A stretch of DNA of 64,000 bases from an uncultured Ruminococcus sp. (GCA_964650045.1 CAZYRT010000001.1:3272-67271), one strand, 5' to 3'. Positions 37,303 to 63,682 are shown, counted from the first letter of the stretch. The notes: a model not told the origin generated them from the letters alone. Translations and numbers: made by a program.

Positions 37303-39651
37303 TTACTTTTTCTTGGATTTGAGAATAAGGATAACTGCAACCGCGATTACAACAACTGCAACTGCTACAATAATGATAACGATGGTATTGCTGCCGTTAT
37401 CTTCATCAGCTTGGCTGTTATCGGCAGATTGTGTATTTTCGGATACAGTTGCTTCAACAGAGCTTTCTGCTTCCTGAAAAACGGTTCCTTCTTCGGAAGA
37501 TTCGGGCTCTTGAGAGGAAACCTCCTGCTGAACAGGCTCCTTCATGGGAAGATTTTCGTCCAAAGCTATCTCTATCTCATCTGCCCAGAGGAAATTGCCG
37601 TTTATGGTAAGAGTGAGCTTGATATATCGGTAATCGTTGAGATAATCGCTTTTTACTGTAAGGGAATGGAGGGTGCTTTGATCGGAGTCAACGGCATCGC
37701 CGTTACCCAAATTTGCAACCTCTTGGGTTTCACCGATAGGGAAGAAGCTTTCCTTGTCATTTGAGCCTTCAACCGAAATGCCTGCGCAAGAAGCAACACC
37801 CCAGAAGCCTGCAGAAGTATAAACTGTGTAGGAATTGGATTTTGCGCCTTCGCCAAGGTCAAATACAACGGTCACCTTATCTGATTGGTCCTTTTTCCAT
37901 GCGGAATAGGCATTTGTTAAAACACCGCTGTTGGATTTCAAGCCGTCGGACAGACGCACACCGTCATCGTGAAGAAGCTTTGTATCAGCCCAATAGCTGT
38001 AATTTTTCTCGGCGGTAACCTCATAAGATGCGCCAACAGAAATTATTTGATATTTAGAAAGAGCCAAAGCATCGGAGATTGCGGTTATTGCATTTTTAAT
38101 TGTTTCTCCGTCTGCATCATCTGCAGAAACCAAGGCTTTGCCGTTGTCCAATGCGGTTGTAAGGGTAGAATAATCCTCGGCAGCATAGTGAGCTTCATCA
38201 GCCTTTTCTCCTTGGGTGATAACATCCGAAAGAACAGCCTTTAAATCAAGACCCGAAAGGGCTTTTTTCAATTCGCCTTGGGTAGGTGTATCATCGGAAA
38301 GAACCTTTTCTGCGTATACAATTGCATTTTTTAGGTTAATATCGTCGGTTTTGATTTCTTTTGCGTTTTGGAGAGAGGACTCCAATTCAGTCTTCAATTC
38401 ATCGTCGGAAAGAGAGGATTTCTTTACAATGAGAAGGGTATCGCAAACCATACGTCCGTTTTCCTCGGGACGTTCGGCAAGATAAACGATTCCGTTTGTT
38501 TCGGTGTAAACTGCGCTTGATCCGCCGCCGTCAAGACGGATAACGTCGGTACAGCCCATTTGTATCATTGCCGCGGCAACATCCTTGAGGGTGAGACCGT
38601 ATTCTTCATTAACAAAGTAAACGAAGGTGCCATCGGCTTTAACACCGAATGCCGTCCATGCTCTTTCTAATGTAACGCTGTGGATAATGGTGCTGTTTTT
38701 GTTTGTTTGGTCAACACCGTCTTTTACAAGCCAATATGCGCTGCTTATTGCGCTATAGGCATTTTCCAATTCGGTAACATAGCCCTGAGCTTCGGCTCCT
38801 ATTTCAACCGAATCTCCTTCCTTCAATCCGCTAACAGCAGTTGCATAGGGCGAATCAGTCTTTACGAAAAGGATAAATTGGCTGTCATTTTCGGGAATCG
38901 TTGCGCCAAAGGTGGATTCAGAGACCGAAACAACCTTACCTTTAAGAGTTCTTCCGACTGCGATTTCGGTGTTGTCCAGTTTATCGCAAAGAATTTCGTA
39001 ACCGCTTATATCGGATTTCGCGATGGGCGAATAGCAATTTAGTACATGGCGGTCATAATAGAAAAATTCGCCTAATTTTGAAGATGTGGAGGACTTTCCT
39101 TCAATATATGTATATTTCTTGTTTACAGAAACAAGGCTTCCTGTTTCCTCTCCGTTGAGAGAGACGGGATATTTAATGGAAGGGTTGCTTACATGGCTCA
39201 TAACGCCCTTTGCATCAAAGCAAGCCAAGGCTTCCATTGCTCCCGAATCACCGATTATTATTCTGCCGTTGGATATAAGCATACCTGTCATTGTGCTGGT
39301 GGCACCCTGGAAGAAAGAGCCGTTTATTGCGCCCACGACCTCATATCCTTCGTCAGCGGCATAATTCATGTGCTTTTCCATGAATGTAACTCCGCCTGCT
39401 GTGCCTGTAAAGGCGAGAGGGATATTACCGTCCGCAGGAGAAAATTCGAAAACATAGGATCTTGCGCTGTCTTCGCAAACGCTTCCTGTTATATCATAGG
39501 TAGTGAAAAGTGTGTTGTTAGAGAGAGTTTCGGAGGAAACTGTAGAAAATTCAACTGTTGCAGTTTGAGTCTCTGCAAAAACAGTTATTCCCAAGGATAA
39601 TACTACCGATACTACGGTCAACACAGAAATAAAGCTTCTAAAAGCCTTCAT
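37303..39651 (-). CDS. Surface protein paralog 1: phosphodiester glycosidase (NAGPA/DUF2233-like), FIVAR-like helices, discoidin-like domain, C-terminal TM anchor
   Basis: ATG 39651 after GAGGAG; the track start is TTG. Signal peptide. AINGSFF and IRLDGGGSSAVY motifs. FIVAR-like ...TQGELKKALSGL. YRYIKLTL...FLWADEIEI. C-terminal IVIIIVAVAVVVIAVAVILILKSKKK. Confidence 0.6.
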   Translation of the reverse strand: MKAFRSFISVLTVVSVVLSLGITVFAETQTATVEFSTVSSETLSNNTLFTTYDITGSVCEDSARSYVFEFSPADGNIPLAFTGTAGGVTFMEKHMNYAADEGYEVVGAINGSFFQGATSTMTGMLISNGRIIIGDSGAMEALACFDAKGVMSHVSNPSIKYPVSLNGEETGSLVSVNKKYTYIEGKSSTSSKLGEFFYYDRHVLNCYSPIAKSDISGYEILCDKLDNTEIAVGRTLKGKVVSVSESTFGATIPENDSQFILFVKTDSPYATAVSGLKEGDSVEIGAEAQGYVTELENAYSAISSAYWLVKDGVDQTNKNSTIIHSVTLERAWTAFGVKADGTFVYFVNEEYGLTLKDVAAAMIQMGCTDVIRLDGGGSSAVYTETNGIVYLAERPEENGRMVCDTLLIVKKSSLSDDELKTELESSLQNAKEIKTDDINLKNAIVYAEKVLSDDTPTQGELKKALSGLDLKAVLSDVITQGEKADEAHYAAEDYSTLTTALDNGKALVSADDADGETIKNAITAISDALALSKYQIISVGASYEVTAEKNYSYWADTKLLHDDGVRLSDGLKSNSGVLTNAYSAWKKDQSDKVTVVFDLGEGAKSNSYTVYTSAGFWGVASCAGISVEGSNDKESFFPIGETQEVANLGNGDAVDSDQSTLHSLTVKSDYLNDYRYIKLTLTINGNFLWADEIEIALDENLPMKEPVQQEVSSQEPESSEEGTVFQEAESSVEATVSENTQSADNSQADEDNGSNTIVIIIVAVAVVVIAVAVILILKSKKK

Positions 39652-39688
39652 GATAATCAACTCCTCATTTTAATTTATTATCATGTTC

Positions 39689-44418: not shown

Positions 44419-46743
44419 TTATGCGAAAATAGACTTTTTAAGCATGAAATAGTCGATAGCGGTCAATTTGCCGTCGCCGTTCATGTCGCAACGTGCAAAC
44501 GCGTTATCGGGATCCTTCAAGGAGCTGACGGAAATAACGTTCATAACTACTTTTTTGAGAATCAAATAGTCTGTTGCGGTCATTTTACCGTCGTTATTTA
44601 CGTCGCCCACGCCCTGAGAAATAACAGGAGTGTCACTTTCGGGAAGAAGTGTGCCGTTAAGAGCCGCTTCAACCTCATCAAGCCAGAGGAACGCGCCGTT
44701 GGAATATGCGGCAAATCTGATATAACGGTAATTCTGAACATCCTCGCTGACAACAGTCATTTTGGAAAGCTCGGTGATAACTCCGTCTATGGGAATGCCT
44801 TCGCCAACCTTAACCAATGTATCGGTATATCCGATCTCGGTAAAGTTAACACCGTCGTTAGAACCGGAAACATTCAACCAATAGGGAGGATTAACGCCCC
44901 ATTGCTTGCTTGCAGAATAGATGTTATAGGTATTGGTCTGAACATTTGCGCCAAGGTCAACGATAACCTCAACATATTCGATGCTGCCCACATTCTTATT
45001 AAACGCAGAATAGGTGGAGGAGAAGGGATCCGAGGTGCTCTTAAAGCCATCGGTAAGACGGATTTCGTCGTCAAAGAGGGAGCTTCCGTTTTGATAGGTA
45101 TAATCGGAATCGCTTGCGGTGTAGCTTGCACCGATAGATACTATTGAAAATTCGGAAAGGGAAAGAGCATCCGAAAGCTCACTGATAGAATTTGCATATT
45201 GGGTCTGGGTAGCGGAAGCATTCGCCAAAACCTTGTTTGCATTTTCAATGGCAGTCCGGAGTATAGAATAATTGCTGTCGCGGTAGTGTGTGGAGTCCTC
45301 TGCTTCAGCCTGTGCAACAAGCTTGGTAAGAACATTGTTGAGAGAAAGGGCAGAAAGGAGCTTTTTAACATCGCCGTCGGAAGGATAAGTTTCTTTAAGA
45401 AGAGCTTCTGCCTTTGCGATATTTGTTTTAAGCTCTGCATCGGGCTTTTCAACTGTTTTTGCTGTTGCAACAGCAGCTTCAAGCTCGGCTGCAAGGTCTT
45501 CGTCATAGGTGCTTTCTTTGGAAACTACCAAAAGAACATCACAGATGGGACGTCCGCTTGTATACTGTGTTGTTTCAGCAAGGTAAACAACGCCGTCGGT
45601 TTCGTTATACATAGCGCTGGATCCGCCGCCGTCCAAGCGATAAACGTGGATACAGCCCAATTCGATCATTGCCGCGGCAACATCCTTAAGCGTGAGACCG
45701 TATTCTTCATTAATGAAGTAGACAAAGGAACCGTCTTCCTTAACGCCGAAGGCTGTCCAAGCACGGCTGAGGCTGACGCTGTGTGTACCGATCTGAGATT
45801 GGGTATTTGTTTGGTCAACACCGTCTTTTACAAGTGCATAGCAGGAGGAGATAGCGCTGTAAGCATTATTCATAGCTTCCTTTGCGGCACTATTCTGTTC
45901 ATCAACAGAAATAGAAATGATATCGCCTGCGGAAAGACCTGTTGCATAGGATACCTTATTGGAAGCTGCAGGCATAAAGAGGGTGAAATATTGATGTTCG
46001 GTAGGACGGTTTGCGCCGTAAGTAGCTTCGGTAACCGAAATTACTCTGCCTTTCAAGGTGTGACCGACCGAAAGCTCACTGTCATCAAGCTTTTCGCAGA
46101 GTATTTCGTAGCCTTCAACAGTACCGGAAACACCGGATTTTGCATAAGCATCATAATAGAAGAAACGGTTAACGAAATCAGAATTTCTTCCCAAAACATA
46201 GGAATACTTTTTGTTAACGGAAGCCAATGCACTTACAAGCTTTTCGCCGTTTATTTCTACAGTATAGGAAAGATTGGTAAGAGCATGGGTAAATTCGCCG
46301 TTGGAGGAGAAGATGCCCACAGATTCACCTGCACAAGCGGCATCGGCAGCGATGATTCTTCCGCCGGAAATATTGATACCGCACATATTAACACCGTTGA
46401 AGAAGGAGCCGTTTATTGCGCCGATAACATGATAGCCTTCGGCATTAGCCTGATTAACATGTGTGCTGAAAAAAGGGAGGTTTGCACCGCCGTATGCGGC
46501 ATAAGCTAAGGGAATAGCGCCATCGGCAGGGTCAAATTCCAAAACATAGGATGTGGAAGTCTTTCCGCTGTCGGAACCGTAAATGCTGTAGGTTGAATAG
46601 GTTGCGGAATTGCTCAAGGTTTTTGAGGTAGAGGTGTTTTTGGTCAATTCCACGGTAGAGGTAGCCGCATTGGCTATCACACAGGAGGACACAAGCATTA
46701 CTGCCATAACCAAAAGAGCAATCAATCGTTTTGCACTTTTCAT
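44419..46743 (-). CDS. Surface protein paralog 2: phosphodiester glycosidase-like, FIVAR-like, discoidin-like domain, type I dockerin
   Basis: Signal peptide. AINGSFF and YRLDGGGSSAMY. YRYIRFAAYSNGAFLWLDEVE. C-terminal dockerin pair GDVNNDGKMTATDYLILKK...CDMNGDGKLTAIDYFMLKK. Confidence 0.65.
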   Translation of the reverse strand: MKSAKRLIALLVMAVMLVSSCVIANAATSTVELTKNTSTSKTLSNSATYSTYSIYGSDSGKTSTSYVLEFDPADGAIPLAYAAYGGANLPFFSTHVNQANAEGYHVIGAINGSFFNGVNMCGINISGGRIIAADAACAGESVGIFSSNGEFTHALTNLSYTVEINGEKLVSALASVNKKYSYVLGRNSDFVNRFFYYDAYAKSGVSGTVEGYEILCEKLDDSELSVGHTLKGRVISVTEATYGANRPTEHQYFTLFMPAASNKVSYATGLSAGDIISISVDEQNSAAKEAMNNAYSAISSCYALVKDGVDQTNTQSQIGTHSVSLSRAWTAFGVKEDGSFVYFINEEYGLTLKDVAAAMIELGCIHVYRLDGGGSSAMYNETDGVVYLAETTQYTSGRPICDVLLVVSKESTYDEDLAAELEAAVATAKTVEKPDAELKTNIAKAEALLKETYPSDGDVKKLLSALSLNNVLTKLVAQAEAEDSTHYRDSNYSILRTAIENANKVLANASATQTQYANSISELSDALSLSEFSIVSIGASYTASDSDYTYQNGSSLFDDEIRLTDGFKSTSDPFSSTYSAFNKNVGSIEYVEVIVDLGANVQTNTYNIYSASKQWGVNPPYWLNVSGSNDGVNFTEIGYTDTLVKVGEGIPIDGVITELSKMTVVSEDVQNYRYIRFAAYSNGAFLWLDEVEAALNGTLLPESDTPVISQGVGDVNNDGKMTATDYLILKKVVMNVISVSSLKDPDNAFARCDMNGDGKLTAIDYFMLKKSIFA

Positions 46744-49904: not shown

Positions 49905-50020
49905 TACAAATCTGGCGTCTTATTTTTGTGTAATGTTCACAAAAAAACACAGAATCATTGACATAAAGAAATAAATTTTGTATAATGTACGAAGAAAAAT
50001 ACAATAAGGAGAAAAGTTTA

Positions 50021-52345
50021 ATGAAAATCACCAAAAGATTTCTTGCTCTTGGTCTGGTCGTTCTTATGCTGTTTTCAACATGTGTGGTTGCTAATGCAGC
50101 AAGCGGAAGCGCTACCTTGACCAAGGGAAGCACCTACACTATCGACAATGCAGTGTACTATTCTACTTATACTGTAAAAGGTACAAGTGCAAGTACAACT
50201 GCTCACGTTCTTGAATTTAATCCCGATGACGGTTATGTTCCCATGGCGTTCACCGGCGCGGCAGGTGACGTTCTTTCCGTTTCCGAGCAATATGCTGCGG
50301 CTGTTGCTCAGGGTTATGAGGTTGCAGGCGTTATCAACGGTTCCTTCTTTGATATGAACCGCGGTTCCTTGAACCAGGTTTTGATCAGTGAAGGAAGATT
50401 GATTTCCGCTGATATAAGCAATAGCGTAGGCGAAGTTGCTACCTTTGACACAGAAGGTAACATGGGTCACGGCTATAGCGTTCTTCATTTCGATATAACC
50501 TTTAACGGCACAACAGTTAAGGATTCCCTTGTTTCGGTTAACAAGAGATATCAATATATTGCCAATGCAAGCTCAACAAAGAGTTACACAGATCGTTTCT
50601 TCTATTATGACAGCAAGGTTGGAAGCGATGGATATTACGGCTTCACCAGCACCTCTGCAAACGGCTACGAAATTCTTTGTGAAAAGCTTGATTATACCGA
50701 AATCGCTGTAGGCAAGACCTTGAAGGCAAAGGTTATCAGCGTAAGCTCCGGCAGAAATTACGGTACCACAATTCCCACAAGCGATAATCAGTTTGTTCTT
50801 TTTGTAAAGAGCAGCTCTTCTTATGCATCCTATGCATCCAGCCTTTCCGCAGGCGCCTCTATCACCGTTTATTCCTACGAATCCAGCTCTACTCAGGCGA
50901 TGAACGATGCATATTCCACAATGAGTTCTGCTTATTACCTTGTTCAGAACGGTGTTGACAAATGTGCATCTTCTTCAAGCATCGGCGGACACAGCGTTAA
51001 CAGCTATGGAAGACCTTGGACTGCATTCGGTCAAAAGGCAGACGGTTCTTTTGTATATTTCATTTCCACAGGCGAAAAGATCGACCTTGCGGATGTTTCT
51101 GCAGCTATGATAAAGCTTGGCTGTGTAAATGTTATCCGTCTTGACGGCGGCGGATCCACCGCTATGTATGTAAACGGCAAGGGCTCTGTTTACACTCAGG
51201 GCAGAGATGTTGCCGATGCTCTTCTTATCGTAAAGAAATCCAGCCTTGAAGATACCGCTCTTACTGCAAAATTGGAAGAATCTGTTGCTCTTGCAAAGAC
51301 AATTTCCAATCCTACTGCTGAAATTTCCGCGGCAATCACCGAAGCTGACGCAGTTTTGGCAAACGCTTATCCTGCAAAGGGTCTTGTTAAGGTAGCTCTT
51401 TCCAAGGTTAACAACAAGGCAATACTTGGCAATCTTATTTCTCAGGCACAATCCGAATCCTCCTCTCACTATTCTACTGAGGATTACGCGACACTTCAAA
51501 CTGCTATCACCAACGGTAACAGTGTTTTGAATAATTCAAGTGCTACCGATGCACAAGTTTCTTCTGCTATCACTCAGCTTACTTCTGCTCTTGAGCTTTC
51601 CAATTATAATATGCTTTCCACAGGCAAATCCTACACAGTAGGCGGAGCAACAGCTTACACCGCTGATACAACCGATGACGGTGTGCGTTTGACAGACGGT
51701 GCTAAATGCAGTCTTGATCCCTTGACTTCTGATTATTCTGCATGGAAAGGCAATTATATTGATGACGGCGCAGGCGGAAAATATCAGACAATCACCGTTG
51801 ATTTGGGCGAATCCACCGTTTCCAATGTTTACAAGATCTATATGGCAAGCAACTTCTGGGGTGTTTCCGCTTCCGGATTCGTAAGTGTTTGGGGTTGTAA
51901 CACCAAAGACGGCACTTATACTCTTATCGGTTACGATGAAAGTCTTGAACAGGAAGCATCAGGTGTTTGTGCTTCTGTAGATAATTCCACAGTTATATCC
52001 TCTTCTATGACTATCTCCAGCGAAACAGCGCAGAATTACCGTTATATCAGATTCAATGTTTACCCCGGCGGATCCTTCCTTTGGGTAGATGAAGTTGAAG
52101 TAATTCGTGACGATTCTCTCCTTCCCGAAGAAGAACCTGCTCCTGCAACAGGCGTGGGCGACGTAAACAATGACGGCAAATTGACCGCGACCGACTATTT
52201 GATGCTCAAGAAAGTGGTTATGGACGTTATTTCCGTCAGCTCCTTGAAGGACCCCGACAACGCGTTTGCACGCTGTGACTATAACGGCGACGGCAAATTG
52301 ACCGCTATCGACTACTTCATGCTTAAAAAGGCTATGTTTGCATAA
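50021..52345 (+). CDS. Surface protein paralog 3: phosphodiester glycosidase-like, FIVAR-like, discoidin-like domain, type I dockerin
   Basis: ATG 50021 after AAGGAG. Signal peptide. VINGSFF and IRLDGGGSTAMY. YRYIRFNVYPGGSFLWVDEVE. Dockerin GDVNNDGKLTATDYLMLKK...CDYNGDGKLTAIDYFMLKK. Confidence 0.65.
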   Translation: MKITKRFLALGLVVLMLFSTCVVANAASGSATLTKGSTYTIDNAVYYSTYTVKGTSASTTAHVLEFNPDDGYVPMAFTGAAGDVLSVSEQYAAAVAQGYEVAGVINGSFFDMNRGSLNQVLISEGRLISADISNSVGEVATFDTEGNMGHGYSVLHFDITFNGTTVKDSLVSVNKRYQYIANASSTKSYTDRFFYYDSKVGSDGYYGFTSTSANGYEILCEKLDYTEIAVGKTLKAKVISVSSGRNYGTTIPTSDNQFVLFVKSSSSYASYASSLSAGASITVYSYESSSTQAMNDAYSTMSSAYYLVQNGVDKCASSSSIGGHSVNSYGRPWTAFGQKADGSFVYFISTGEKIDLADVSAAMIKLGCVNVIRLDGGGSTAMYVNGKGSVYTQGRDVADALLIVKKSSLEDTALTAKLEESVALAKTISNPTAEISAAITEADAVLANAYPAKGLVKVALSKVNNKAILGNLISQAQSESSSHYSTEDYATLQTAITNGNSVLNNSSATDAQVSSAITQLTSALELSNYNMLSTGKSYTVGGATAYTADTTDDGVRLTDGAKCSLDPLTSDYSAWKGNYIDDGAGGKYQTITVDLGESTVSNVYKIYMASNFWGVSASGFVSVWGCNTKDGTYTLIGYDESLEQEASGVCASVDNSTVISSSMTISSETAQNYRYIRFNVYPGGSFLWVDEVEVIRDDSLLPEEEPAPATGVGDVNNDGKLTATDYLMLKKVVMDVISVSSLKDPDNAFARCDYNGDGKLTAIDYFMLKKAMFA

Positions 52346-56003: not shown

Positions 56004-56177
56004 ATGGCTTATACTATTAACAATGATGTTTGTCTCGGCTGCGGCGCTTGTGAAGCAGAATGTCCTGTAAGCGCAATTGCAGTTAACGAAGAAGGCAAAT
56101 ATGTTATCGACCCCGATACTTGTGTAGAATGCGGCGCATGTGCAGGTGTTTGCCCTGTTGATGCTCCCCAGGCATAA
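56004..56177 (+). CDS. 2x[4Fe-4S] ferredoxin
   Basis: Not in the ORF track (57 aa): MAYTINNDVCLGCGACEAECPVSAI...DPDTCVECGACAGVCPVDAPQA. Two CxxCxxCxxxCP motifs. GGAGG RBS. Confidence 0.93.
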   Translation: MAYTINNDVCLGCGACEAECPVSAIAVNEEGKYVIDPDTCVECGACAGVCPVDAPQA

Positions 56178-56191
56178 AGGGATTTTAAAAG

Positions 56192-56233
56192 AGCGCTGTT
56201 GTAAGCCAACGCTTGCGGCAGCGCTGTTTTTTT
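56192..56233 (+). terminator. Ferredoxin terminator
   Basis: AGCGCTG...CAGCGCT stem followed by GTTTTTTT. Confidence 0.75.
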
Positions 56234-56346
56234 GTTCAATGGGAGTTAATAGACATAATTTAAGAGTTAATTTTGCAAAGCGTTAATAGATTCATAATAA
56301 ATGTATGTTATAATTAAAATTGACAATGATTTAAGGATATAATGTT

Positions 56347-57090
56347 ATGGACGTAAAAAAGGAATCTGTAACAAATGAAATAAATGCAGGCATCACCTTA
56401 AAGGAGCCAAAGGGCGGCATCCGCTTCGGCACAGATGCTCTTTTGTTGGCAGATTTTGCTTTGTCTGTTATTAAAAAGGGCTTGTGTATCGATTTGGGTA
56501 CAGGCTCGGGTGTTATTCCTCTTTTAATGCTCGGCGCAGGCTGTAAGGCGGATTTTTGGGGATTGGAGCTTCAGCAGGAATATGCTGTTGCTGCTCAGGA
56601 AAATGCAGAACGAAACGGTTTTTCTCAACGGTTTCGGGTTATAAACGGCGATGCTTTTGATTATAAGAAGCTTTTTCCCTCGGGAGGAGCCGATCATGTT
56701 ATAACAAATCCTCCCTATATGCGTGCCGATTGCGGTTACAACAACGATTCTCCTGCCTTGGATATTGCAAGAAGGGAAATTTCAGGCGGTGCCGAGATAT
56801 TTTGCAAGGCGGCTTCTTGGGCTTTAAAAAGCGGAGGAAGCTTTTTCGCGGTTTACCGTCCCGATAGATTAGTTCATCTGTTTTGTGCTATGAGAAACAA
56901 CGGAATAGAACCGAAACGTCTTCGCGCTGTTGTGCCTTCTTCCTCCAAAAAGCCCTCTCTTGTTCTTGTAGAGGGAAGAAAGGACGGCAAGGAAGGGCTT
57001 AATTACGAAAACGATCTTTATATTTATACCGACCAAGAACACAAAAACGAGACTTCGGAATTAAAGGAAATATACGAAAGGTTCGGCTAA
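56347..57090 (+). CDS. N6-adenine methyltransferase, tRNA1(Val) m6A37 (TrmN6/YfiC)-like
   Basis: DLGTGSG SAM motif and NPPY catalytic motif (ITNPPYM). Its stop is immediately followed by the next ATG. Confidence 0.7.
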   Translation: MDVKKESVTNEINAGITLKEPKGGIRFGTDALLLADFALSVIKKGLCIDLGTGSGVIPLLMLGAGCKADFWGLELQQEYAVAAQENAERNGFSQRFRVINGDAFDYKKLFPSGGADHVITNPPYMRADCGYNNDSPALDIARREISGGAEIFCKAASWALKSGGSFFAVYRPDRLVHLFCAMRNNGIEPKRLRAVVPSSSKKPSLVLVEGRKDGKEGLNYENDLYIYTDQEHKNETSELKEIYERFG

Positions 57091-60000
57091 ATGAAGAAAG
57101 CTTTAGTTTCTTTAATATTAACGGTTTGCCTGCTTCTTCCCGTTGGAGTTATCAACGGGGCTGTTCTTTTTGCGCCCGAAACACCGTTTGCTCATTTAGA
57201 CGAATTGAGAGAAAAGGCTTTAGAGCAGTCTTTGGAGGATTTTTCGGGAAGAGAAAAGAAAGACGGCGCTGTTCAGGGAAAAGAACGTTATATTGTGAAA
57301 TTCAAGGATTCTGTTTCTTTGCATGATATACAAAAGGTATTGGAGGACGTTTCCTATGAGCTTCTTGCCGAAAGCGATCAACGTCTTTTTGCTTTGGTTT
57401 TGAATGATTCGGCATTTATTAATGAAAATTCGGATATTATTGAATATTCCGAAGCTGACCTTGTGAGAACTTCTCTTGCTGTTGTTGATGACCCTATGGT
57501 TATCCAAGGGTATGAAAAAATGGATGTTTACGGAGCTTGGGATATTGCAACGGGAAACGAATCGGTTATCGTTGCGGTTCTTGACACAGGTGTTGACCGA
57601 ACACACGAGGATTTGAAAAATGTAAAAATACTTTCGGGCTATGATGCAGTTTCGGGAATTGCGGATGTAAACGAGGATACTGCAGGACACGGAACCGGCG
57701 TTATCGGTCTTATAGCCGCAACGGCCAATAATAATATTGGAATTGCAGGAATCGCCCACGGTGTTTCGATTCTTCCCATAAAGGTTGCGGTCAGCAACAC
57801 GACTATCTATTCCTCTGACCTTATTAAGGGTATACGTTTTGCTGCCGATGCAGGAGCGAAGGTTATAAATATGTCTATCGGAGGCTATGCTTCCTCTTAT
57901 GCCGAGCAGGCGGCTGTGGACTATGCTGTTTCCAAGGGCTGTATTCTTATATCTGCCGCAGGTAACGGAGGAAAAGGAGAATTTGCAGGTCAAAAAAGTT
58001 ATCCTGCTTCTTATGACGGAGTTATTTCGGTTGCTTCGGTTGATGCTTCCGGAACCCCCAGCAGCTTCTCTCAATATAACGATTCCGTGGATGTTGCCGC
58101 TTACGGAGAAAAGCTTCCTCTGCCTTATGTTGACGGGGATAGAAATTCTCTTTATAAAGAGGATTCGGGAACCAGCTTTTCCTGTGCCTTTGTAAGCGGT
58201 ATTGCCGCGCTTGCCGTTTCCTTAACAGGAGACAGCGCAAGGTTGGAAAGCGAGGAATTCCTCTCTCTGATAATCGAATCCTGCGGTGAAGACCGCAATG
58301 ACCGTGTGGGTTACGGCATAATCAACGCGAAAGAGATATTAAACCTTGCGACCAAGCCTATTATAACAGGTGTTTCAAACGGAAAAAACTATTCGGACAG
58401 CGTGAATATAGGTTTTAACCGAGGCACGGCAACTCTTGACGGAGAATCGATCGAGGATGGACAAATTGTTATTGCCAACGGCAAGCATACCTTGGTGGTT
58501 ACAGACGGCGAAAACAAAAAAACGGTTACCTTCCGTTTGGAATACGATCCTATCTCATATAAATTTTATGAGTTCCCCAGCTATGCCTATTTTGAATTTT
58601 CCAAGGGAACAGCCTTTTTGGACGGTTTTCCTTATGTATCGGGTGAACGTATAACAGAATCGGGACGTCATTTGTTTGTTTTGACCGATGGGGATCAGCG
58701 TTTGGAGAAAAGCATTGATCTGTCTTACACTCTGCCCACAGTTTACGGTGTTGAAGAGGGAAAGACCTATAACCGTCCCATAGAAATCTCGGTTATAGGT
58801 GACGGCAGCGCAGAGCTTGACGGCAAGCAGATTTACGGCAAAACGGTTATATATACTAACGGTGACCATAAGCTTAAGCTTATAAGCGGAAACGGTGCCA
58901 TAATCCAAGAAATACAGTTTTCTCTCAACTGCAAAGATATGGAATTTATCGACAACGATTATGCCAACGGCAGCGCTTTTGTTGATGAAGAAAACGGATT
59001 TGTCTGCCTTTACGGCGAAACCTTGGTGGGCGCCCGTATTTATGATATTTCGGCTTTGAATAAATATTTGTGCTTCCTTCCCGTTGGGGAGGTTTACGGT
59101 CATGCCGTTCGCGGAGACGAATTGCTTCTTTTCGGTGTCGAAGGTGTTACTGTTATTGACAGAGCTTCTGCAAAAAACGGAAAGGATTCTGTAAAAGAGG
59201 TTTATAAATTTGACGATATAAGCTATTATACCTATTTTCAGGATACGGTTTACGGGTTCGGAAACGGAAATATGTATTTCCTTGATGAATTTGGTATTCC
59301 TGCCTTGGCTGCCGAGCTTGGCTTCAATTGTGAAAAAGCCTTTTTCCAAGAAGGAAAATTTCTCCTTCTCAACCCTTCCGCGGACAATATTCTCAGAATT
59401 TTCGATCCCGTTACAAGTGAGATTCAAAATATCGACCTTCCCGTTGCATTAAAGGATGAAAAAATCGTCTTCGGAGAGGGGAAGCTTGCTGTAGGCAATA
59501 AGCTGTTTGATATTTTCAGCGGTGAAGCTTTGCTTGAATTCAGCTCTAATTTTGCGGTTGCCGTAAAGGACAATAGGGTTTATACCGGTAACAGCATCAT
59601 TGACATTGAAAGCGGAAGGATTTTGGGAGTTTTCCCCTTCCAAATTTCAGATATATCGGTTACCGAAAGCGGAAATTATCTTTTCGGTACTGAGAAAAAG
59701 GCGGCTGTTATAAAAACCAAAAACGGTGATGTGTCGGATTTTGGAGTTGCGGAAAACCTAGAATATGTTTTCTCGGAAACCTATTCGATGAATCCTTATC
59801 ATATAAACGGTTATTATGACAGATATTCTTCTCTTATCTCCACCTCGGTTTCGGGAAATAAAATGTTTTTGCTGTTTCAAGGAAAGCCTATGCTATACAG
59901 CTTTGACGGTGAAACATTTACTGAGGGCAAGCCTTTGGAATTGAAATATATGCCTTCTCGGGTAAATTGCTCCAACGGTTATGTGGCTGTATCCTTTGTC

Positions 60001-62601
60001 AACGGCAAAGCGCTGTATATCGCTCCGGCGGATTCGCCTGCCGAGGGAAGATATATCTCTCTTTCCTATGCTTGTGACGATGCAGCATCGGCGAACCGAA
60101 ATATATATTTTACTTCGGGCGGAAAGCTTTTTGTCTATACACTCGACACAGATGTCCTTTTGGAGACAGATATATCTGCCTTTGAAGTAGAAACAGGAGA
60201 AAATGGATTGTTTGTTGTTGCAAACAGTAATATTTATCATTATGATTACAGTCTTTCTCTCCTTTCTTCGGCTTCCTGCGGAAACGGAAAATTGGTTTTG
60301 GATGAATATTATGCCGCAGTAGGCAAGGATGTATTCAATATTCAGAATTTGTCTAAAATCGGCTCGACCGATTCGGATATTCTTGCCATAAAGGGAGCTT
60401 ACGGTGTTACCTCCGACGGTATTTTCAAATTGGATGTTAACCGATATGCAGGTGATACTGCTATAAAATATTCTGCTTCGGCGGCTATTATTGAAAATAA
60501 TACCGTTGTAACCTTCGGCGGCGGCGACGTTTGCTTCTGCGCCTACGGAGACGGAACCGATGTTATTCTGAATCCCGAAATTACGGGGATAACAGACGGC
60601 GGTGTTTATGAAGGCAGCGCTTTAATAAGCTATACAAACGGCTTTGGCTATCTTGACGGAAAGAGCTTTCAATCAGGCGGTGAAATAAAGGATGTGGGAC
60701 GCCATGAATTTGTTCTGTCGTTGCCTTGTTCGAGAAATATCGTTATAAGCTTTTATGTTTCCGCGCCGTTATCAAAAATAGAATTTGCATCCGGCAACCG
60801 TACTCTTTCGGTAGGCGAAAGCTTCACTCTTTCTCTCAGCTATCTGCCTGCAGGCGCAACCTCTGTTAAAGCGGAATTTCAATGGGATTCTGAAGGTTTG
60901 TCTATAACCGAGGATGGTGTGGTTACTGCCGTTGGTCCGGGAAAATATGCGGTCAAGGCTATTGTAAGAACCGAAACCAGCGTTTTGGAAGCCAACTGTA
61001 TTATAACCGTCGAGGAATCGCCTGCGGTATTCCCTGATGAAAGCGGAATTGTTATCGACCGCAACAGTAATTTTGTCGTGGGAGCAGAATCGGGAAAAAC
61101 CGCTTCAGAGCTTTTGGAACTGTTGGAAACAGAAAGGGTTGCTGAAATAGTAAACGAAAAAGGCGAAGCTGTTACAGGAAGGCTTTTCACAGGACATAAG
61201 CTTATTATCCACGGTTCAAACGGCGGTCCCGATGATGAGTTGACGATTATAGTAAAGGGTGATACCGACGGAGACGGATATATTTCTTCAATGGACCTTT
61301 ATGTTTTAAAGAGCATATTGGGCGGCAAGACATTTGAGCCTATGTATGTCCGCGCCGCTGACTTAAACGGCAGCGCTTCGGTTACTGATAAGGATTACAG
61401 AATTCTTGAAAATATCCTTTTGGGCAAAACTCAGGTGTCCATGGCGGCTCCTGAAAATCTCTATTTCGGTGCATTTGATGTGCAGACCCATACAAAAGCC
61501 GAAAGCGGAGGATTTATTGATGCTGCTGTTATCCTTTCCGGCTGTAAGCACGCTCAGGGGGTTTACGGTAAGCTGAATTACGGAAGCGGATTGGAATTGA
61601 CCGAGTTTTCGGCAGAGGGCTGGGAATTTGAATATCATGATTTCGGCGGAGAGATCGGTTTTTATGCCTATTCTCCTCAAGGAGAGGAATGCGGAACCGC
61701 TTTCAAGGTACTTTTGAACCTTCGCTTCAAGGTGGTTGCAGCTGCCGATGAGATCGTTTCGATATCCTCCGAGGGATTGAATGTTTCCATGCACGGTGAA
61801 TGCCGTAAGGTTAAGTTCAATTCTATGGAAAGAACTGTTGCCGAATCTGTGGACGGTGATTTCAAGATCGAAATATCCAATGCTTACGGATATTATTTCT
61901 CCCGTGATGTTTATGAATATAGCATAACTGTGCCGTACAACAGCGCATTGGTGGATATATGGACAATTTGCGGTGAGCTTCAATCAGCTTCGGTTTCCTC
62001 TTGCGTGGTTCCCGATTCGGGAGAAACACAGATAAATGTGAAATTTTCGGATCGGCTCACCGGTACATTCTATTATACCTTTAATATAAAAAGAGAGGAA
62101 ACGCCGAGAATCGATGCGAATTGCAGGCTTTCGGATCTGGAAATACAGGGATTCCAGTTCAAACCTGTATTTTCTCCCGATTTTCATGAATATTATCTTA
62201 CTGTTCCCTATGGAACCCAAAAGCTTGAAATATATGCAATTGCCGAAAGCAGCTCGGCTTCGGTATATATAAGCGACAGCAATCTGTCTGTGGGAGAAAA
62301 TGTTATAAAAGTAACAGTTTATGCTCCTGACGGCGAGGCTATGGAATATATTATAAATGCCGAACGCTCGGCTCCTCCTCAGCAATCGGAGCCTTCTGAC
62401 GAATCTTCTGAAGTATCCGAACCGATTTCCTACGAGGTTTCCGAGATAAGCTCTTATGAAGAATCTTCGTTATCGTCTTTAGATATTCAGGAAGAAAAGG
62501 GTTATGTAGGTACAACCATTGCAGTTGTTTGTGTTGTTGCGGCTGCTGTTCTTGTGGTTTTGACTTACAGAAGAAAAAACGGCGGTTCTGTTGAGAGATG
62601 A
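57091..62601 (+). CDS. 1836-aa membrane-anchored S8 subtilisin-like protease with repeat, Big_2-like, dockerin-like, cohesin-like and cadherin-like modules
   Basis: Signal peptide. I9-like propeptide. Catalytic triad contexts VAVLDTGVD, GHGTGVIG, SGTSFSCAFVSG. Four modules of about 60 aa (G..Y...A.LDG...G.H.L.V). Big_2-like at about 60.77-60.97 kb. GDTDGDGYISSMDLYVLK...ADLNGSASVTDKDY at about 61.26-61.43 kb. Cadherin-like ...LSDLEIQGFQFKPVFSPDFHEYYLTVPY. C-terminal TM. Confidence 0.8.
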   Translation: MKKALVSLILTVCLLLPVGVINGAVLFAPETPFAHLDELREKALEQSLEDFSGREKKDGAVQGKERYIVKFKDSVSLHDIQKVLEDVSYELLAESDQRLFALVLNDSAFINENSDIIEYSEADLVRTSLAVVDDPMVIQGYEKMDVYGAWDIATGNESVIVAVLDTGVDRTHEDLKNVKILSGYDAVSGIADVNEDTAGHGTGVIGLIAATANNNIGIAGIAHGVSILPIKVAVSNTTIYSSDLIKGIRFAADAGAKVINMSIGGYASSYAEQAAVDYAVSKGCILISAAGNGGKGEFAGQKSYPASYDGVISVASVDASGTPSSFSQYNDSVDVAAYGEKLPLPYVDGDRNSLYKEDSGTSFSCAFVSGIAALAVSLTGDSARLESEEFLSLIIESCGEDRNDRVGYGIINAKEILNLATKPIITGVSNGKNYSDSVNIGFNRGTATLDGESIEDGQIVIANGKHTLVVTDGENKKTVTFRLEYDPISYKFYEFPSYAYFEFSKGTAFLDGFPYVSGERITESGRHLFVLTDGDQRLEKSIDLSYTLPTVYGVEEGKTYNRPIEISVIGDGSAELDGKQIYGKTVIYTNGDHKLKLISGNGAIIQEIQFSLNCKDMEFIDNDYANGSAFVDEENGFVCLYGETLVGARIYDISALNKYLCFLPVGEVYGHAVRGDELLLFGVEGVTVIDRASAKNGKDSVKEVYKFDDISYYTYFQDTVYGFGNGNMYFLDEFGIPALAAELGFNCEKAFFQEGKFLLLNPSADNILRIFDPVTSEIQNIDLPVALKDEKIVFGEGKLAVGNKLFDIFSGEALLEFSSNFAVAVKDNRVYTGNSIIDIESGRILGVFPFQISDISVTESGNYLFGTEKKAAVIKTKNGDVSDFGVAENLEYVFSETYSMNPYHINGYYDRYSSLISTSVSGNKMFLLFQGKPMLYSFDGETFTEGKPLELKYMPSRVNCSNGYVAVSFVNGKALYIAPADSPAEGRYISLSYACDDAASANRNIYFTSGGKLFVYTLDTDVLLETDISAFEVETGENGLFVVANSNIYHYDYSLSLLSSASCGNGKLVLDEYYAAVGKDVFNIQNLSKIGSTDSDILAIKGAYGVTSDGIFKLDVNRYAGDTAIKYSASAAIIENNTVVTFGGGDVCFCAYGDGTDVILNPEITGITDGGVYEGSALISYTNGFGYLDGKSFQSGGEIKDVGRHEFVLSLPCSRNIVISFYVSAPLSKIEFASGNRTLSVGESFTLSLSYLPAGATSVKAEFQWDSEGLSITEDGVVTAVGPGKYAVKAIVRTETSVLEANCIITVEESPAVFPDESGIVIDRNSNFVVGAESGKTASELLELLETERVAEIVNEKGEAVTGRLFTGHKLIIHGSNGGPDDELTIIVKGDTDGDGYISSMDLYVLKSILGGKTFEPMYVRAADLNGSASVTDKDYRILENILLGKTQVSMAAPENLYFGAFDVQTHTKAESGGFIDAAVILSGCKHAQGVYGKLNYGSGLELTEFSAEGWEFEYHDFGGEIGFYAYSPQGEECGTAFKVLLNLRFKVVAAADEIVSISSEGLNVSMHGECRKVKFNSMERTVAESVDGDFKIEISNAYGYYFSRDVYEYSITVPYNSALVDIWTICGELQSASVSSCVVPDSGETQINVKFSDRLTGTFYYTFNIKREETPRIDANCRLSDLEIQGFQFKPVFSPDFHEYYLTVPYGTQKLEIYAIAESSSASVYISDSNLSVGENVIKVTVYAPDGEAMEYIINAERSAPPQQSEPSDESSEVSEPISYEVSEISSYEESSLSSLDIQEEKGYVGTTIAVVCVVAAAVLVVLTYRRKNGGSVER

Positions 62602-62662: not shown

Positions 62663-63682
62663 ATGATTTTAGAGGGCTTTATGAAAAGAATTATCAGTAT
62701 TTTTACAGTTTTACTTATGATACTCTGCCTTTTTGTTCCCGTTGTAGCGAATGCCGAGGAAACAAGCACGCAGGAAAAGATACAAGGCGACTATGGTGTT
62801 GACCTTTCGGTTTGGAACATAGGGGGAAGCAAGGTAATGGATTATTCCCTCATTGATTTCAAAAAAGCCAAGGAGGCGGGCTGTGAATATGCCATTCTCC
62901 GAATAGGCTTTGAGGGTTCTTCCACAAGAGAGGATACATTGGACCTTGCTTTTCTTGAATATTACAAAATGGCAAGAGAAGCGGGAATGAAGCTTGGGAT
63001 TTATTTCTATGCCTTGGCAACAACTTATGATCAGGCTGTTAACGATGCAGAATGGGTCATCAAGGTTATCGAAGATAATGATCTTTATTTCGAATATCCT
63101 CTTTACTATGATGTTGAAACAGGACCCCATTATGCTTTGAGCGCTGTTCAGATGACAAGCCTTTGCAACGGTTGGTGCCAGACTCTCGAAAAAGCAGGCT
63201 ATTACGGCGGTGTTTACGGTCGTGCCGACATTCTCGATAAGCTTGACGACGAGTTCAAATCAAAATACAGCCTTTGGCTCAGATACATAAAGACCGATTC
63301 ACCTCTCGGTAAGCAATATGACCCCGATACTTTGGACAAGAGTGCAGATTGCCAGCTTTGGCAATATACAATGTTCCAAAAGTTCGACGGTATTCAAAAC
63401 GATGAGCTTGACGGCAATTTCTGCTATATAAACTATGCCGAATTTATGGCTCAAAACGGTTATAATAATTACACATTGGAGCTTTATAACGAAGCCGAGG
63501 GCATCGAATCCGAAGAGGTTTTCGAAGGAACAGAAAGCCTTGATCCTGTTAGTGATGCTGTGGAGGCAGAAGGCGGCATCAGCGTTATGGGAATCGTTTT
63601 CATAGCGTTGGGAGCAGTTGCCGGATTGGCGGCTGTTATCGTTTTGATAGTGGTTTTGTGTAAAAAAGAAAATAAAATGTGA
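62663..63682 (+). CDS. GH25 muramidase (lysozyme) with a C-terminal TM helix
   Basis: ATG 62663 after AGAGGA. Signal peptide. YGVDLSVWNIG...AILRIGFEG...GIYFYA...PLYYDVE fits the GH25 barrel. C-terminal IVFIALGAVAGLAAVIVLIVVL. Confidence 0.7.
   Translation: MILEGFMKRIISIFTVLLMILCLFVPVVANAEETSTQEKIQGDYGVDLSVWNIGGSKVMDYSLIDFKKAKEAGCEYAILRIGFEGSSTREDTLDLAFLEYYKMAREAGMKLGIYFYALATTYDQAVNDAEWVIKVIEDNDLYFEYPLYYDVETGPHYALSAVQMTSLCNGWCQTLEKAGYYGGVYGRADILDKLDDEFKSKYSLWLRYIKTDSPLGKQYDPDTLDKSADCQLWQYTMFQKFDGIQNDELDGNFCYINYAEFMAQNGYNNYTLELYNEAEGIESEEVFEGTESLDPVSDAVEAEGGISVMGIVFIALGAVAGLAAVIVLIVVLCKKENKM

Follow-up and report, generated by a model that had tools for sequence, protein, structure and literature searches.

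A giant membrane-anchored subtilase of uncultured gut bacteria with adjacent dockerin and cohesin modules: a probable surface enzyme that may also serve as a scaffoldin

The locus described here raises the question of what a subtilisin-type protease does with both a dockerin and a cohesin in its own chain. It lies in a 64-kb window (the whole stretch of DNA that was analysed) from an uncultured Ruminococcus sp., in which a preliminary description, made from the sequence alone, had noticed an ORF of 1836 aa at 57091-62601 whose product could both dock and be docked. The analysis reported here indicates that this 1,836-residue protein probably acts at the cell surface both as an enzyme and as an assembly point for other proteins. 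The best-known assemblies of the cohesin-dockerin type are cellulosomes and, lately, the amylosome of Ruminococcus bromii, and the protease family would represent a third setting. The family is distinguished by a dockerin and a cohesin placed side by side in the apparently rigid stalk of a strictly conserved, single-copy, predicted surface protease of uncultured Clostridia from animal guts.

The gene, its family and its surroundings

The ORF at 57091..62601 is a real gene. Full-length orthologues were recovered (n=118, 30-86% identity), so that the reading frame recognized earlier is not a product of chance. The members of this family (~1800 aa) occur as one copy per genome and only in metagenome-assembled genomes (MAGs) of uncultured gut Eubacteriales/Oscillospiraceae; their domain lengths are near-invariant over the 118 sequences, the stalk being the sole segment of variable length. 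As had been pointed out, the protease starts at the base that follows the stop of a tRNA-methyltransferase-like gene, its ATG directly abutting the TAA. The product of this upstream gene aligns over its full length with the NCBIfam TrmN model, albeit with 50 bits against a cut-off of 350. A promoter-like site (56314-56343) follows a strong terminator (56192-56225) and, since the two coding sequences abut, the operon probably begins with the methyltransferase. The features of the operon as far as the catalytic domain are the following.

56347..57090, + strand: small NPPY-type class I methyltransferase, 247 aa, TrmN/PrmC-like (Pfam MTS, NCBIfam)
57091..62601, + strand: protease ORF, 1836 aa
57091..57171, + strand: signal peptide, aa 1-27 (MKK, hydrophobic core, ING/AV; read from the sequence)
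57172..57507, + strand: propeptide-like region, aa 28-139 (position and alignment to pro-subtilisin E)
57508..58350, + strand: S8 subtilase catalytic domain, aa 140-420, thermitase-like (Pfam, PDB profile matches)

In 43 related loci, the methyltransferase gene immediately precedes that of the protease, and it is the only neighbor conserved there: GH25, VTC, DUF4956, Cthe_2159 and NAGPA genes are not conserved beside the protease in these loci. The TM-anchored GH25 muramidase that had been placed downstream is indeed present, with a signal peptide and a TM anchor, and it most likely starts at 62663 and not at the overlapping TTG at 62591. However, because its adjacency is not conserved, a functional link with the protease based on adjacency was rejected. 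A role in sporulation, for which SpoIID and an M23 peptidase encoded downstream had been considered, was dropped for the same reason, as that adjacency is not conserved either.

Domain architecture from the signal peptide to the membrane anchor

The N-terminal pattern MxKR...L...LxLP is kept in the family consensus. The region that follows (aa 28-139) is probably an I9-type intramolecular chaperone, an assignment that is tentative: the I9-like propeptide proposed earlier holds as regards its position and the alignment of the family profile to pro-subtilisin E (3whi_A, from profile position 65 and chain residue 5), but the region gave neither a Pfam match at E<=10 nor a PDB phmmer match of its own. 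The identity of the catalytic domain is far clearer. Pfam Peptidase_S8 (PF00082) matches residues 158-409 with an E-value of 1.1e-45, spanning profile positions 3-288 of 288, and the best PDB matches in a profile search were AK.1 protease (1e-58) and thermitase (2e-55). The Asp, His and Ser contexts noted before are those of D165 (LDTG), H200 (GHGT) and S362 (GTS), which form the triad in the expected order and, together with the oxyanion N292, are invariant in 118 of 118 orthologues. The S8 domain is predicted from these residues to be active as a protease. It is compact in all orthologues, with 275-281 aa. Two known groups of S8 proteases were considered and discarded for this family: the mycosins of type VII secretion, whose model (TIGR03921) gives 188.1 bits, below its equivalog cut-off of 278.75, and the lactocepin-type cell-envelope proteinases, with which the compact catalytic domain, the lack of PA or LPXTG model matches and the plain TM C-terminus do not agree.

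Between the protease and the dockerin region, the chain is made up of the following parts.

58357..58926, + strand: three tandem ~62-aa beta-sandwich modules, aa 423-612 (alignment, AF2)
58927..60570, + strand: tandem beta-propeller, aa 613-1160, about 13-14 four-stranded blades (AF2, Foldseek)
60571..60762, + strand: fourth copy of the ~62-aa module, aa 1161-1224 (HMM of modules 1-3, alignment)
60763..61014, + strand: Big_2 Ig-like domain, aa 1225-1308 (Pfam, via orthologues)

The ~62-aa modules display the pattern P..G..Y...G.A.LDG...G.H.L. and are modelled by AF2 as six strands each; their length varies by no more than one residue (62 +/-1 aa) across orthologues, and no Pfam family matched them. 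Four such modules had been counted in the preliminary description, and four copies do exist, with P, Y, G, LDG and G-H invariant in their alignment, but they are not consecutive: three lie at 423-612 and one after the beta-rich region, where an HMM built from modules 1-3 matches residues 1162-1225 with an E-value of 1.6e-7. The beta-rich region itself (~550 aa), which had been left unassigned, can be assigned by AF2 and Foldseek as a tandem beta-propeller. A model of 881 aa including it reached a pLDDT of 91.9 and a pTM of 0.80, and its Foldseek matches (E-values from 1e-15 to 1e-12) were the double-propeller proteins BT4673/BT4663, Utp21, Aip1 and Apaf-1. Residues 613-1160 have no Pfam match, and the tandem propeller is a new sequence family. 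For the Big_2-like domain, the Pfam match at 1234-1294 falls under the cut-off (18.2 bits versus 22.8), yet orthologues P0084 (36 bits) and P0119 (28.7 bits) exceed it at the same position, in agreement with the earlier reading.

The cohesin is followed by the elements that connect the protein to the membrane.

61876..62376, + strand: two cadherin-like beta-sandwich domains, aa 1596-1675 and 1676-1762 (Pfam, AF2)
62377..62499, + strand: acidic Ser/Glu-rich stalk, aa 1763-1803 (composition)
62500..62601, + strand: C-terminal TM helix and basic tail, aa 1804-1836, plus stop (hydrophobic 19-mer)

The two cadherin-like modules, the acidic Ser-rich stalk and the TM helix had all been foreseen. The Pfam Cadherin-like family matches in two stretches with 45.8 bits, one module being at 1680-1759 and the second copy before it, and both are beta-sandwiches in the AF2 model. 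The stalk ranges from 9 to 47 aa across orthologues and is modelled with a pLDDT of 54-57; it is probably a flexible spacer through the cell wall. Of the 118 orthologues, 116 have the hydrophobic 19-mer of the TM helix, and no motif is conserved ahead of it; LPXTG is absent and no sortase or other C-terminal sorting-signal model of NCBIfam matched.

The dockerin-cohesin tandem

The central portion of the C-terminal half contains four consecutive elements.

61018..61254, + strand: small beta-beta-alpha-beta-beta-beta domain, aa 1310-1388 (AF2)
61255..61425, + strand: dockerin, aa 1389-1445, two Ca-binding loops and three helices (Pfam, AF2)
61426..61452, + strand: short structured linker, aa 1446-1454, ending in P1454 (alignment, AF2)
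61453..61875, + strand: cohesin domain, aa 1455-1595 (orthologue Pfam matches, Foldseek, custom profile)

The first of them joins the dockerin without a linker and occupies the position of an X-module (it is denoted here as X-like). It is modelled by AF2 with a pLDDT of ~90, its D1323 and R1324 are invariant, and a PDB phmmer search with it returned nothing meaningful. The dockerin is matched by Pfam Dockerin_1 (PF00404) at 1389-1444 with 32.2 bits, above the cut-off of 22.9 and over profile positions 1-57 of 57. It contains two predicted 12-residue Ca-binding loops with the Asp/Asn pattern at positions 1, 3, 5 and 12 (D1391, D1393, D1395 and D1402 in loop 1; D1424, N1426, S1428 and D1435 in loop 2), as well as helices at 1400-1410, 1417-1423 and 1433-1444 in the AF2 model. 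D1391, D1402, D1424 and D1435 are invariant in the 118 orthologues, and D1393, D1395 and N1426 are nearly so. The linker has a median length of 9 aa in the orthologues and a pLDDT of 88-95, and P1454 is present in 108 of the 118.

The cohesin had been regarded as the weakest of the earlier assignments, and a direct Pfam scan of this segment (1453-1592) found no family at E<=10. However, the Cohesin family (PF00963) was matched by orthologues P0105, P0110 and P0119 with 25.6-29.3 bits, above the cut-off of 24.1, aligning to residues 1471-1578, and by 10 of 30 aligned orthologue segments, with a best E-value of 3.2e-7. In addition, a profile made from five unrelated cohesins ranked residues 1461-1562 first in the window (E 0.004). 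The AF2 model, with a pLDDT of ~95 over the domain, is a jelly-roll that Foldseek superimposes on solved cohesins, the matches including 2xdh (E 1.5e-7, TM 0.76), 2vo8 (TM 0.82 with an rmsd of 2.1 A over 135 columns) and numerous cohesins of type II. A profile of the segment gave only weak matches against PDB sequences (E 0.09-0.4), six out of seven being cohesins. Residues 1455-1595 are, in this manner, indirectly confirmed as a cohesin by the orthologue Pfam matches, the predicted structure and an independent profile. The HMM and structure-prediction check suggested earlier for residues ~1380-1600 yielded neither of the two outcomes that would have refuted the earlier reading: it showed this region to be cohesin-like, by orthology and structure, and the dockerin to keep its Ca-binding pattern, which is also maintained in the orthologues along with the tandem itself, as seen from the near-invariant domain lengths.

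Within the family, only the core Gly and aromatic residues of the cohesin are kept, while the outward residues of the putative binding strands are variable. This variability would fit a specificity that co-evolves with a partner and, equally, the absence of any conserved partner. In an AF2 model of the C-terminal 481 aa (pTM 0.84, pLDDT ~92), the five C-terminal domains adopt one confident arrangement. Taken with the linker of ~9 residues, P1454 and the near-invariant lengths, this arrangement suggests that the dockerin and the cohesin do not move freely relative to each other and that the dockerin may be packed in cis.

Known relatives and possible roles of the tandem

A parallel in overall design is provided by the cell-envelope proteinases of lactic acid bacteria and streptococci, such as lactocepin PrtP and the C5a peptidase ScpA. 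These are giant S8 proteins (~1100-2000 aa) with a signal peptide and a propeptide, in which a beta-sandwich stack bears the catalytic domain at its distal end and a hydrophilic wall-spanning spacer precedes a C-terminal anchor, and they fulfil nutritional or surface-processing roles. Their catalytic domain contains an inserted PA domain, and they have A/B domains of the Fn3 type and a sortase anchor with LPXTG. The protein described here shares with them its giant size, the S8 domain, the signal peptide, the stack, the spacer, the C-terminal anchor and, tentatively, the propeptide, but its catalytic domain (~280 aa) has no insertion, there is no LPXTG, and the stalk includes a propeller, a dockerin and a cohesin.

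The notion of an unusual scaffold-enzyme hybrid, put forward in the preliminary description, is a fair one, even if such hybrids are already known. In Acetivibrio cellulolyticus, the scaffoldins ScaP and ScaO contain an S8 peptidase, and an X-dockerin lies beside the cohesin of ScaP (PMC3413522, PMC4217186). ScaP (Dassa et al. 2012, PMC3413522; Hamberg et al. 2014, PMC4217186) resembles the present protein, on the basis of shared domain types, in having an S8 subtilisin-like peptidase and a cohesin in one chain and an X-preceded dockerin that adjoins the cohesin. In contrast, ScaP is described as cell-free and has a C-terminal X60-dockerin following the cohesin, whereas here the order is X-like, dockerin, cohesin, all of them internal, the protein is TM-anchored and includes a tandem beta-propeller and cadherin-like domains, and the host belongs to a non-cellulosomal gut lineage. 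The cohesin of ScaP bound the dockerin of an enzyme, while its XDoc bound none of the cohesins tested (PMC4217186). Another enzyme that is also a scaffoldin is Amy4/Sca1 of the R. bromii amylosome (PMC4611034; bioRxiv 10.1101/2025.03.31.646359). Like our protein, Amy4 has its catalytic module on the same polypeptide as a single cohesin and a single dockerin, in a gut host of the Oscillospiraceae/Ruminococcaceae group (Ze et al. 2015, PMC4611034). However, Amy4 is an amylase of family GH13 whose dockerin is C-terminal, and it is anchored indirectly via the sortase-linked Sca2, in contrast to a protease with an internal dockerin that abuts the cohesin and a TM helix of its own; the self-binding of Amy4 was shown experimentally, whereas the present protein is known from sequence and models.

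With regard to the cohesin itself, the best structural matches were those of Archaeoglobus fulgidus (2xdh) and of the Clostridium perfringens GH33/NagJ proteins (2vo8, 2w1n, 2jh2, 2ozn), with TM values of 0.76-0.82. These non-cellulosomal cohesins were also the best, though weak, PDB sequence matches, with an identity of only 12-15%. They act outside cellulose degradation, as would be the case here, but they reside in glycoside hydrolases or a small archaeal protein and not in a protease and, according to the PDB entries examined, none is directly preceded by a dockerin.

What is established comprises the gene and the conservation of its family, the residues of the active site, the propeller, the folds of both dockerin and cohesin, and the signals for topology; activity as a protease, location at the surface, rigidity and any binding are inferred from these. 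The elements could be integrated in a model in which an uncultured, spore-forming gut Clostridia bacterium displays an active subtilisin-type protease on its cell surface. The signal peptide would direct export, the propeptide would aid folding, and the C-terminal TM helix and the flexible Ser/Glu-rich spacer would hold the protein in the membrane. The ectodomain between protease and spacer would be long and largely rigid, and consists of three Ig-like modules, the tandem beta-propeller (probably a ligand- or substrate-binding platform), the fourth Ig-like module, the Big_2 domain, the X-like/dockerin/cohesin triad and the two cadherin-like domains. Since a cohesin (1455-1595) and a TM anchor with a wall spacer coexist in one chain, as in an anchoring scaffoldin, the protein may double as one, its single cohesin capturing the C-terminal dockerins of secreted, unanchored enzymes, which would be held at the cell surface beside the protease. 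The candidates are two NAGPA glycosidases encoded 5-13 kb upstream.

44419..46743, - strand: NAGPA (phosphodiester glycosidase) protein of 774 aa, secreted and ending in a dockerin (Pfam NAGPA and Dockerin_1, 50 bits)
49985..52345, + strand: second NAGPA protein, of 786 aa, also secreted, which has FIVAR and ends in a dockerin (Pfam NAGPA, FIVAR and Dockerin_1, 48 bits)

The 774-aa protein has a signal peptide, and both paralogues lack an anchor; their dockerins occupy residues 713-774 and 725-786, respectively. A third NAGPA paralogue has a stalk-plus-TM anchor like that of the protease, and the FIVAR domain found in one of the NAGPA proteins is also carried by dockerin-bearing enzymes of C. 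perfringens. Three dockerins are present in the window, and no cohesin besides that of the protease, so both NAGPA-dockerin proteins can be proposed as ligands of the latter. Their dockerins score 18-23 bits against the dockerin profile of the protease family, compared with 86 bits for the protease's own, which indicates a different dockerin class. Synteny of the NAGPA genes with the protease is lacking in other genomes, which speaks against the proposed pairing. Within +/-6 kb of the orthologues, almost no other cohesins or dockerins were found, and the remaining genome may hold other cohesins. The internal dockerin would play a structural, Ca-dependent part within the rigid triad; for a protein that already has a TM anchor, docking elsewhere is not an evident requirement. 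This model, a surface protease that is also an anchoring scaffoldin for dockerin-bearing enzymes and whose own dockerin is structural, is the one that we tentatively prefer, crediting it almost as readily as doubting it. If recruitment takes place, a minimal TM-anchored scaffoldin with one cohesin would be defined, offering a handle on how uncultured gut bacteria organize their surface enzymes.

One uncertainty concerns the internal dockerin: if it covers the binding face of the cohesin, partners in trans would be excluded or would have to compete with it. The dockerin might bind the cohesin of its own chain in a closed, Ca-stabilised unit that stiffens or lengthens the stalk and recruits nothing. 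The short, structured linker ending in a nearly invariant Pro would agree with this, and a 57-residue domain that moves freely would be incompatible with the pTM of the C-terminal model; moreover, anchoring is already provided by the TM helix, with no need of the dockerin. The dockerin-then-cohesin dyad also recurs in unrelated architectures that have separate terminal dockerins (P0232, P0219, P0235), suggesting that the internal dockerin is not the docking one. However, with only nine residues in between, helix 3 of the dockerin may be unable to reach the binding sheet, which in cohesins lies opposite strand 1. Covariation (MI/APC) computed for the dockerin and cohesin columns of 118 sequences (Meff 96) did not exceed that of control domain pairs and is uninformative on this point. 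In the literature searched, no natural cis-bound pair on adjacent modules is documented, and the ScaP cohesin still bound a foreign dockerin despite adjoining the XDoc (PMC4217186). We consider this intramolecular pairing somewhat unlikely, although, if true, it would represent a natural self-closed cohesin-dockerin unit, useful for protein engineering.

Alternatively, the dockerin could bind the cohesin of the next molecule, giving rise to a protease chain or lattice on the surface. The protease family is single-copy and strongly conserved, which would suit such a head-to-tail assembly, and the A. fulgidus parent protein of the closest structural match presumably carries a dockerin too. That match, 2xdh, is a non-cellulosomal cohesin (entry title), and the A. 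fulgidus system is cited among the cohesin-dockerin pairs thought to multimerise, as is documented for Amy4, whose cohesin binds the dockerin of Amy4 itself, with the formation of species of high molecular mass (PMC4611034). Since both modules are here internal and seemingly locked, and pairing in trans between membrane-tethered neighbors would be geometrically demanding, we regard self-assembly as decidedly unlikely. It is very improbable, in turn, that the dockerin serves to attach the protease to a different, cohesin-bearing scaffoldin encoded elsewhere in the genome, with the cohesin-like domain being only a structural beta-sandwich. Dockerin-bearing peptidases are common in ruminococcal systems (PMC4611034, Table 4) and the cohesin segment itself is below the Pfam threshold, but a TM anchor is already present in the protein, the dockerin lies inside the chain instead of at a terminus, several independent lines back the cohesin fold and family membership, and the window contains no second cohesin.

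A broader version of the preferred scaffoldin model, which we deem unlikely, would make the protease the single membrane-anchored hub of an unrecognised non-cellulosomal cohesin-dockerin system in an uncultured Oscillospirales lineage of the gut, in which the cohesin recruits secreted, dockerin-tagged enzymes of the NAGPA type to the side of the protease and of a double propeller that binds ligands, and the dockerin either links hubs or acts as a Ca switch on the cohesin, leading to a self-organising multi-enzyme surface layer.

Domain layout and family of the protease

The protease is encoded, as the preliminary description had proposed, by a single ORF in the window (57091..62601, + strand, 1836 aa), whose ATG, with GAAAGG a few bases 5' of it, directly abuts the TAA stop of a 247-aa methyltransferase ORF. 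The signal-peptide coding region contains, some 50 nt into the protease ORF, a hairpin that resembles a terminator with its T-run (57138-57160, +); it is probably a chance match, since terminator-type sites are no commoner than in shuffled sequence. Pfam recognized four domains in the whole protein.

Pfam matches in the whole protease
aa 158-409, Peptidase_S8, E 1e-45
aa 1234-1294, Big_2, weak
aa 1389-1444, Dockerin_1, 32.2 bits (cut-off 22.9)
aa 1680-1759, Cadherin-like, match

Scanning the protein piecewise revealed a second Cadherin-like stretch, completing the anticipated pair; the ~60-aa modules, the 550-aa middle and the propeptide region gave no match at E<=10. The Big_2 domain, also anticipated, was recovered, but weakly. 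Four ~60-aa modules do exist, not in a row as described, but as three tandem copies at aa 423-612 and a fourth at aa 1161-1224, the latter detected by an HMM of the first three (E 1.6e-7); P, Y, G, LDG and G-H are invariant among all four in an alignment. The beta-rich stretch between them (613-1160), previously left unassigned, is predicted to be a tandem beta-propeller: the AF2 model of aa 420-1300 (pLDDT 91.9, pTM 0.80) shows about 13-14 four-stranded blades, and Foldseek matched the region to the double-propeller proteins BT4673/BT4663 (B. thetaiotaomicron sensors), Utp21, Aip1 and Apaf-1.

A protein search returned 572 relatives, and 118 of the best 120 were full-length (1759-1872 aa, 30-86% identity, 91-100% of the query covered). 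When one genome per species was scanned, near-full-length matches were found in roughly 35 genomes, at one copy per genome, all of them uncultured MAGs labelled Eubacteriales, Oscillospiraceae, Clostridia or Ruminococcus sp.; for several of them the source was the gut of sheep, buffalo, deer or rabbit. Because none of the 118 orthologues departs from D165, H200, S362 or the oxyanion N292, these are, judging from sequence, probably active enzymes and not pseudo-proteases. The family profile best matches thermitase-type subtilases (AK.1 protease, 1e-58; thermitase, 2e-55). It also aligns with pro-subtilisin E, starting at profile position 65, and this single alignment suggests the I9-like propeptide that had been proposed, whereas Pfam found none.

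The predicted acidic stalk and membrane anchor are likewise present: aa 1763-1803 are rich in Ser/Glu, and after them come a hydrophobic helix and then a basic tail. The helix occurs in 116 of the 118 orthologues with no conserved motif ahead of it, and models of sortase and other sorting signals had no match in the protease. Lactocepin-type envelope proteinases share the overall design; in contrast to them, the protease has neither their defining PA insertion nor their LPXTG anchor.

The dockerin and the cohesin

The suspected Ca-binding pair is a dockerin whose pattern is intact (D1391, D1393, D1395 and D1402 in loop 1; D1424, N1426, S1428 and D1435 in loop 2) and which adopts the expected three helices in the AF2 model. 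The pattern is under strong selection, with no exception at position 1 or 12 of either loop in 118/118 sequences. At recognition positions 10-11 the first half carries S-M (family consensus A-Y) and the second D-K (consensus D-N), and therefore the module is not internally symmetrical. A ~78-aa beta-beta-alpha-beta-beta-beta domain (aa 1310-1388), for which no recognizable relatives were found, joins the dockerin without a linker in the AF2 model, in the same place as the X-modules of X-dockerin dyads.

The cohesin had been named the weakest assignment, and both HMM analysis and structure prediction of the region upheld it. The segment around 1453-1592 is a genuine cohesin fold according to five lines of evidence, even if this segment of the protease itself gave no Pfam match at E<=10. 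Three more distant orthologues (P0105, P0110 and P0119) pass the Pfam Cohesin cut-off (25.6-29.3 bits vs 24.1) in a region corresponding to residues 1471-1578 in the family alignment, and 10 of 30 orthologue segments scanned alone matched Cohesin. The segment profile gave weak matches only against PDB sequences, but six of the seven were cohesins (C. perfringens NagJ, ScaB, C. thermocellum anchoring cohesin). The AF2 model of aa 1300-1780, built from a 54-sequence alignment, reached pLDDT 92.2 and pTM 0.84, and Foldseek placed at the top of the PDB the non-cellulosomal cohesin of A. fulgidus (2xdh, TM 0.76), closely followed by the C. perfringens GH33 cohesin (2vo8, TM 0.82, rmsd 2.1 A over 135 columns) and then by many type II cohesins. 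Finally, an independent profile of five Pfam-verified cohesins, all from unrelated proteins, ranked residues 1461-1562 top among the 683 six-frame ORFs of the window (E 0.004).

The dockerin-cohesin tandem is kept in the orthologues, and domain lengths are nearly invariant across the 118, with free variation in the stalk only.

Lengths in the protease family
S8 domain, 275-281 aa
~60-aa modules, 61-71 aa (medians 62-66)
Dockerin, 57-58 aa
Dockerin-cohesin linker, median 9 aa
Cohesin, 132-144 aa
Stalk, 9-47 aa

P1454, which closes the linker, is kept in 108 of 118 sequences. The disordered ends make up about 7% of the 481-residue model and, given how pTM is computed, a value of 0.84 would therefore rule out a 57-residue domain that moves freely. 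Thus, the dockerin and the cohesin look like fixed parts of a single body, in contrast to classical scaffoldins, whose modules are carried on flexible Pro/Thr linkers. Covariation between dockerin and cohesin columns was no stronger than between control pairs of domains, and so speaks neither for nor against contact between the two.

Possible partners and modes of action

Three paralogous phosphodiester glycosidase (NAGPA) proteins of ~780 aa each are encoded within 15 kb of one another in the window.

NAGPA proteins
37303..39660, - strand, acidic stalk, TM helix and basic tail, design as in the protease
44419..46743, - strand, signal peptide, C-terminal dockerin (50 bits), no anchor
49985..52345, + strand, signal peptide, C-terminal dockerin (48 bits), no anchor

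Their ends look like a natural swap between two routes to the cell surface. The NAGPA dockerins are internally symmetrical and score 18-23 bits with the protease-family dockerin profile, against 86 bits for the protease's own. Together with the dockerin and cohesin of the protease, these two bring the window to three dockerins, against a single cohesin.

The gene, its intact active site, the dockerin and cohesin folds, the propeller, the export and anchor signals and the conservation of the family are established, and they can be read in several ways. The earlier idea of a protease that could both dock and be docked is partly supported, in that both of its modules are real. The protease would be exported by Sec to the surface and held by one C-terminal membrane anchor, with a rigid stalk keeping the catalytic domain off the membrane. 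It may also be an anchoring scaffoldin, whose cohesin would capture dockerin-tagged secreted enzymes, the NAGPA proteins being candidates, and whose internal dockerin would be a structural, Ca-dependent piece of an X-like-dockerin-cohesin triad; we hold this tentatively, at somewhat less than an even chance. The dockerin-cohesin pair may be locked together, and a clasp in cis, in which the internal dockerin occupies the protease's own cohesin, is the likeliest of the alternatives, if still rather unlikely.

The scaffoldins ScaO and ScaP of A. cellulolyticus "uniquely contain putative peptidases", S8 subtilisin-like per the figure legend; in ScaP an X-dockerin adjoins a cohesin that bound an enzyme's dockerin, and the XDoc bound none among the cohesins tested (PMC3413522, PMC4217186). 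Classical docking of the protease onto another scaffoldin seems very improbable. R. bromii Amy4 combines a catalytic module, a cohesin and a dockerin, recognizes its own dockerin and works as a scaffoldin (PMC4611034; bioRxiv 10.1101/2025.03.31.646359); a similar head-to-tail self-assembly of the protease is improbable, though likelier than docking onto another scaffoldin.

When 1.84 billion representatives were searched with a profile, the dockerin-then-cohesin order also turned up in other architectures, and it thus recurs as a unit. The carriers P0223 (CHAP, PG_binding, Listeria-Bacteroides repeats, C-type lectin, dockerin, cohesin), P0235 (the dyad with LRR), P0232, P0219 and P0196 are unrelated extracellular proteins with about 13-31 residues between dockerin and cohesin, small dockerin-cohesin-dockerin proteins among them; the dyad may itself be an independently mobile unit. 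Whether taken as an enzyme-scaffoldin hybrid or as a cell-envelope subtilase, the protease is of a known kind, and its architecture should be no great surprise to a specialist; its family is uncharacterized and without a cultured member, and it offers a clean, testable case of cohesin-dockerin biology beyond fibre and starch degradation.

Gene neighbourhood

Features around the protease gene
41923-44298, + strand, cobalamin-dependent methionine synthase (S-methyl_trans, Pterin_bind, B12-binding) between NAGPA paralogues
52640-55852, - strand, cluster of a VTC domain protein, DUF4956 and a Cthe_2159-type beta-helix carbohydrate-binding protein
56004-56177, + strand, 57-aa 2x[4Fe-4S] ferredoxin gene, upstream of the methyltransferase-protease pair
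56192-56225, strong terminator after the ferredoxin gene
56314-56343, promoter-like site
62663-63682, + strand, GH25 muramidase, 339 aa

In 43 related loci the protease gene is immediately preceded by a small NPPY-type methyltransferase gene, with stop and start abutting or overlapping, down to a protease identity of about 27-30%; conservation of the methyltransferase is far higher (42-92%), and the pairing has no obvious functional rationale. The name "tRNA-methyltransferase-like" is plausible but unproven, because the full-length NCBIfam alignment with TrmN (50 bits) is far below the cut-off of 350. The ferredoxin gene keeps its position in loci L001, L002 and L083.

The downstream GH25 muramidase, described as TM-anchored, does have a signal peptide, and its C-terminal TM anchor carries a KKENKM tail, but its place is not conserved in the 43 loci. 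Gene calling puts its start at 62663 and not at the TTG 62591, which overlaps the protease stop. With it, three proteins in the window share this type of anchor. Past the 3' end of the window (L083, 11477-14069), GH25 is followed by a 276-aa protein without a Pfam family, SpoIID and an M23 peptidase; this indicates a spore-forming host, and the arrangement is not conserved beside the protease in other genomes.

Two other scanned loci encode proteins with a dockerin or a match to one: a different S8 protease of ~1028 aa with a C-terminal dockerin (L044, 5908-8991) and, just downstream of the protease orthologue, a ~1196-aa ORF that weakly matches dockerin at its C-terminus (L006, 11625-15212). 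The methionine synthase appears to be an ordinary housekeeping gene, and the VTC/DUF4956/Cthe_2159 grouping is reminiscent of polyphosphate- or CotH-associated clusters.
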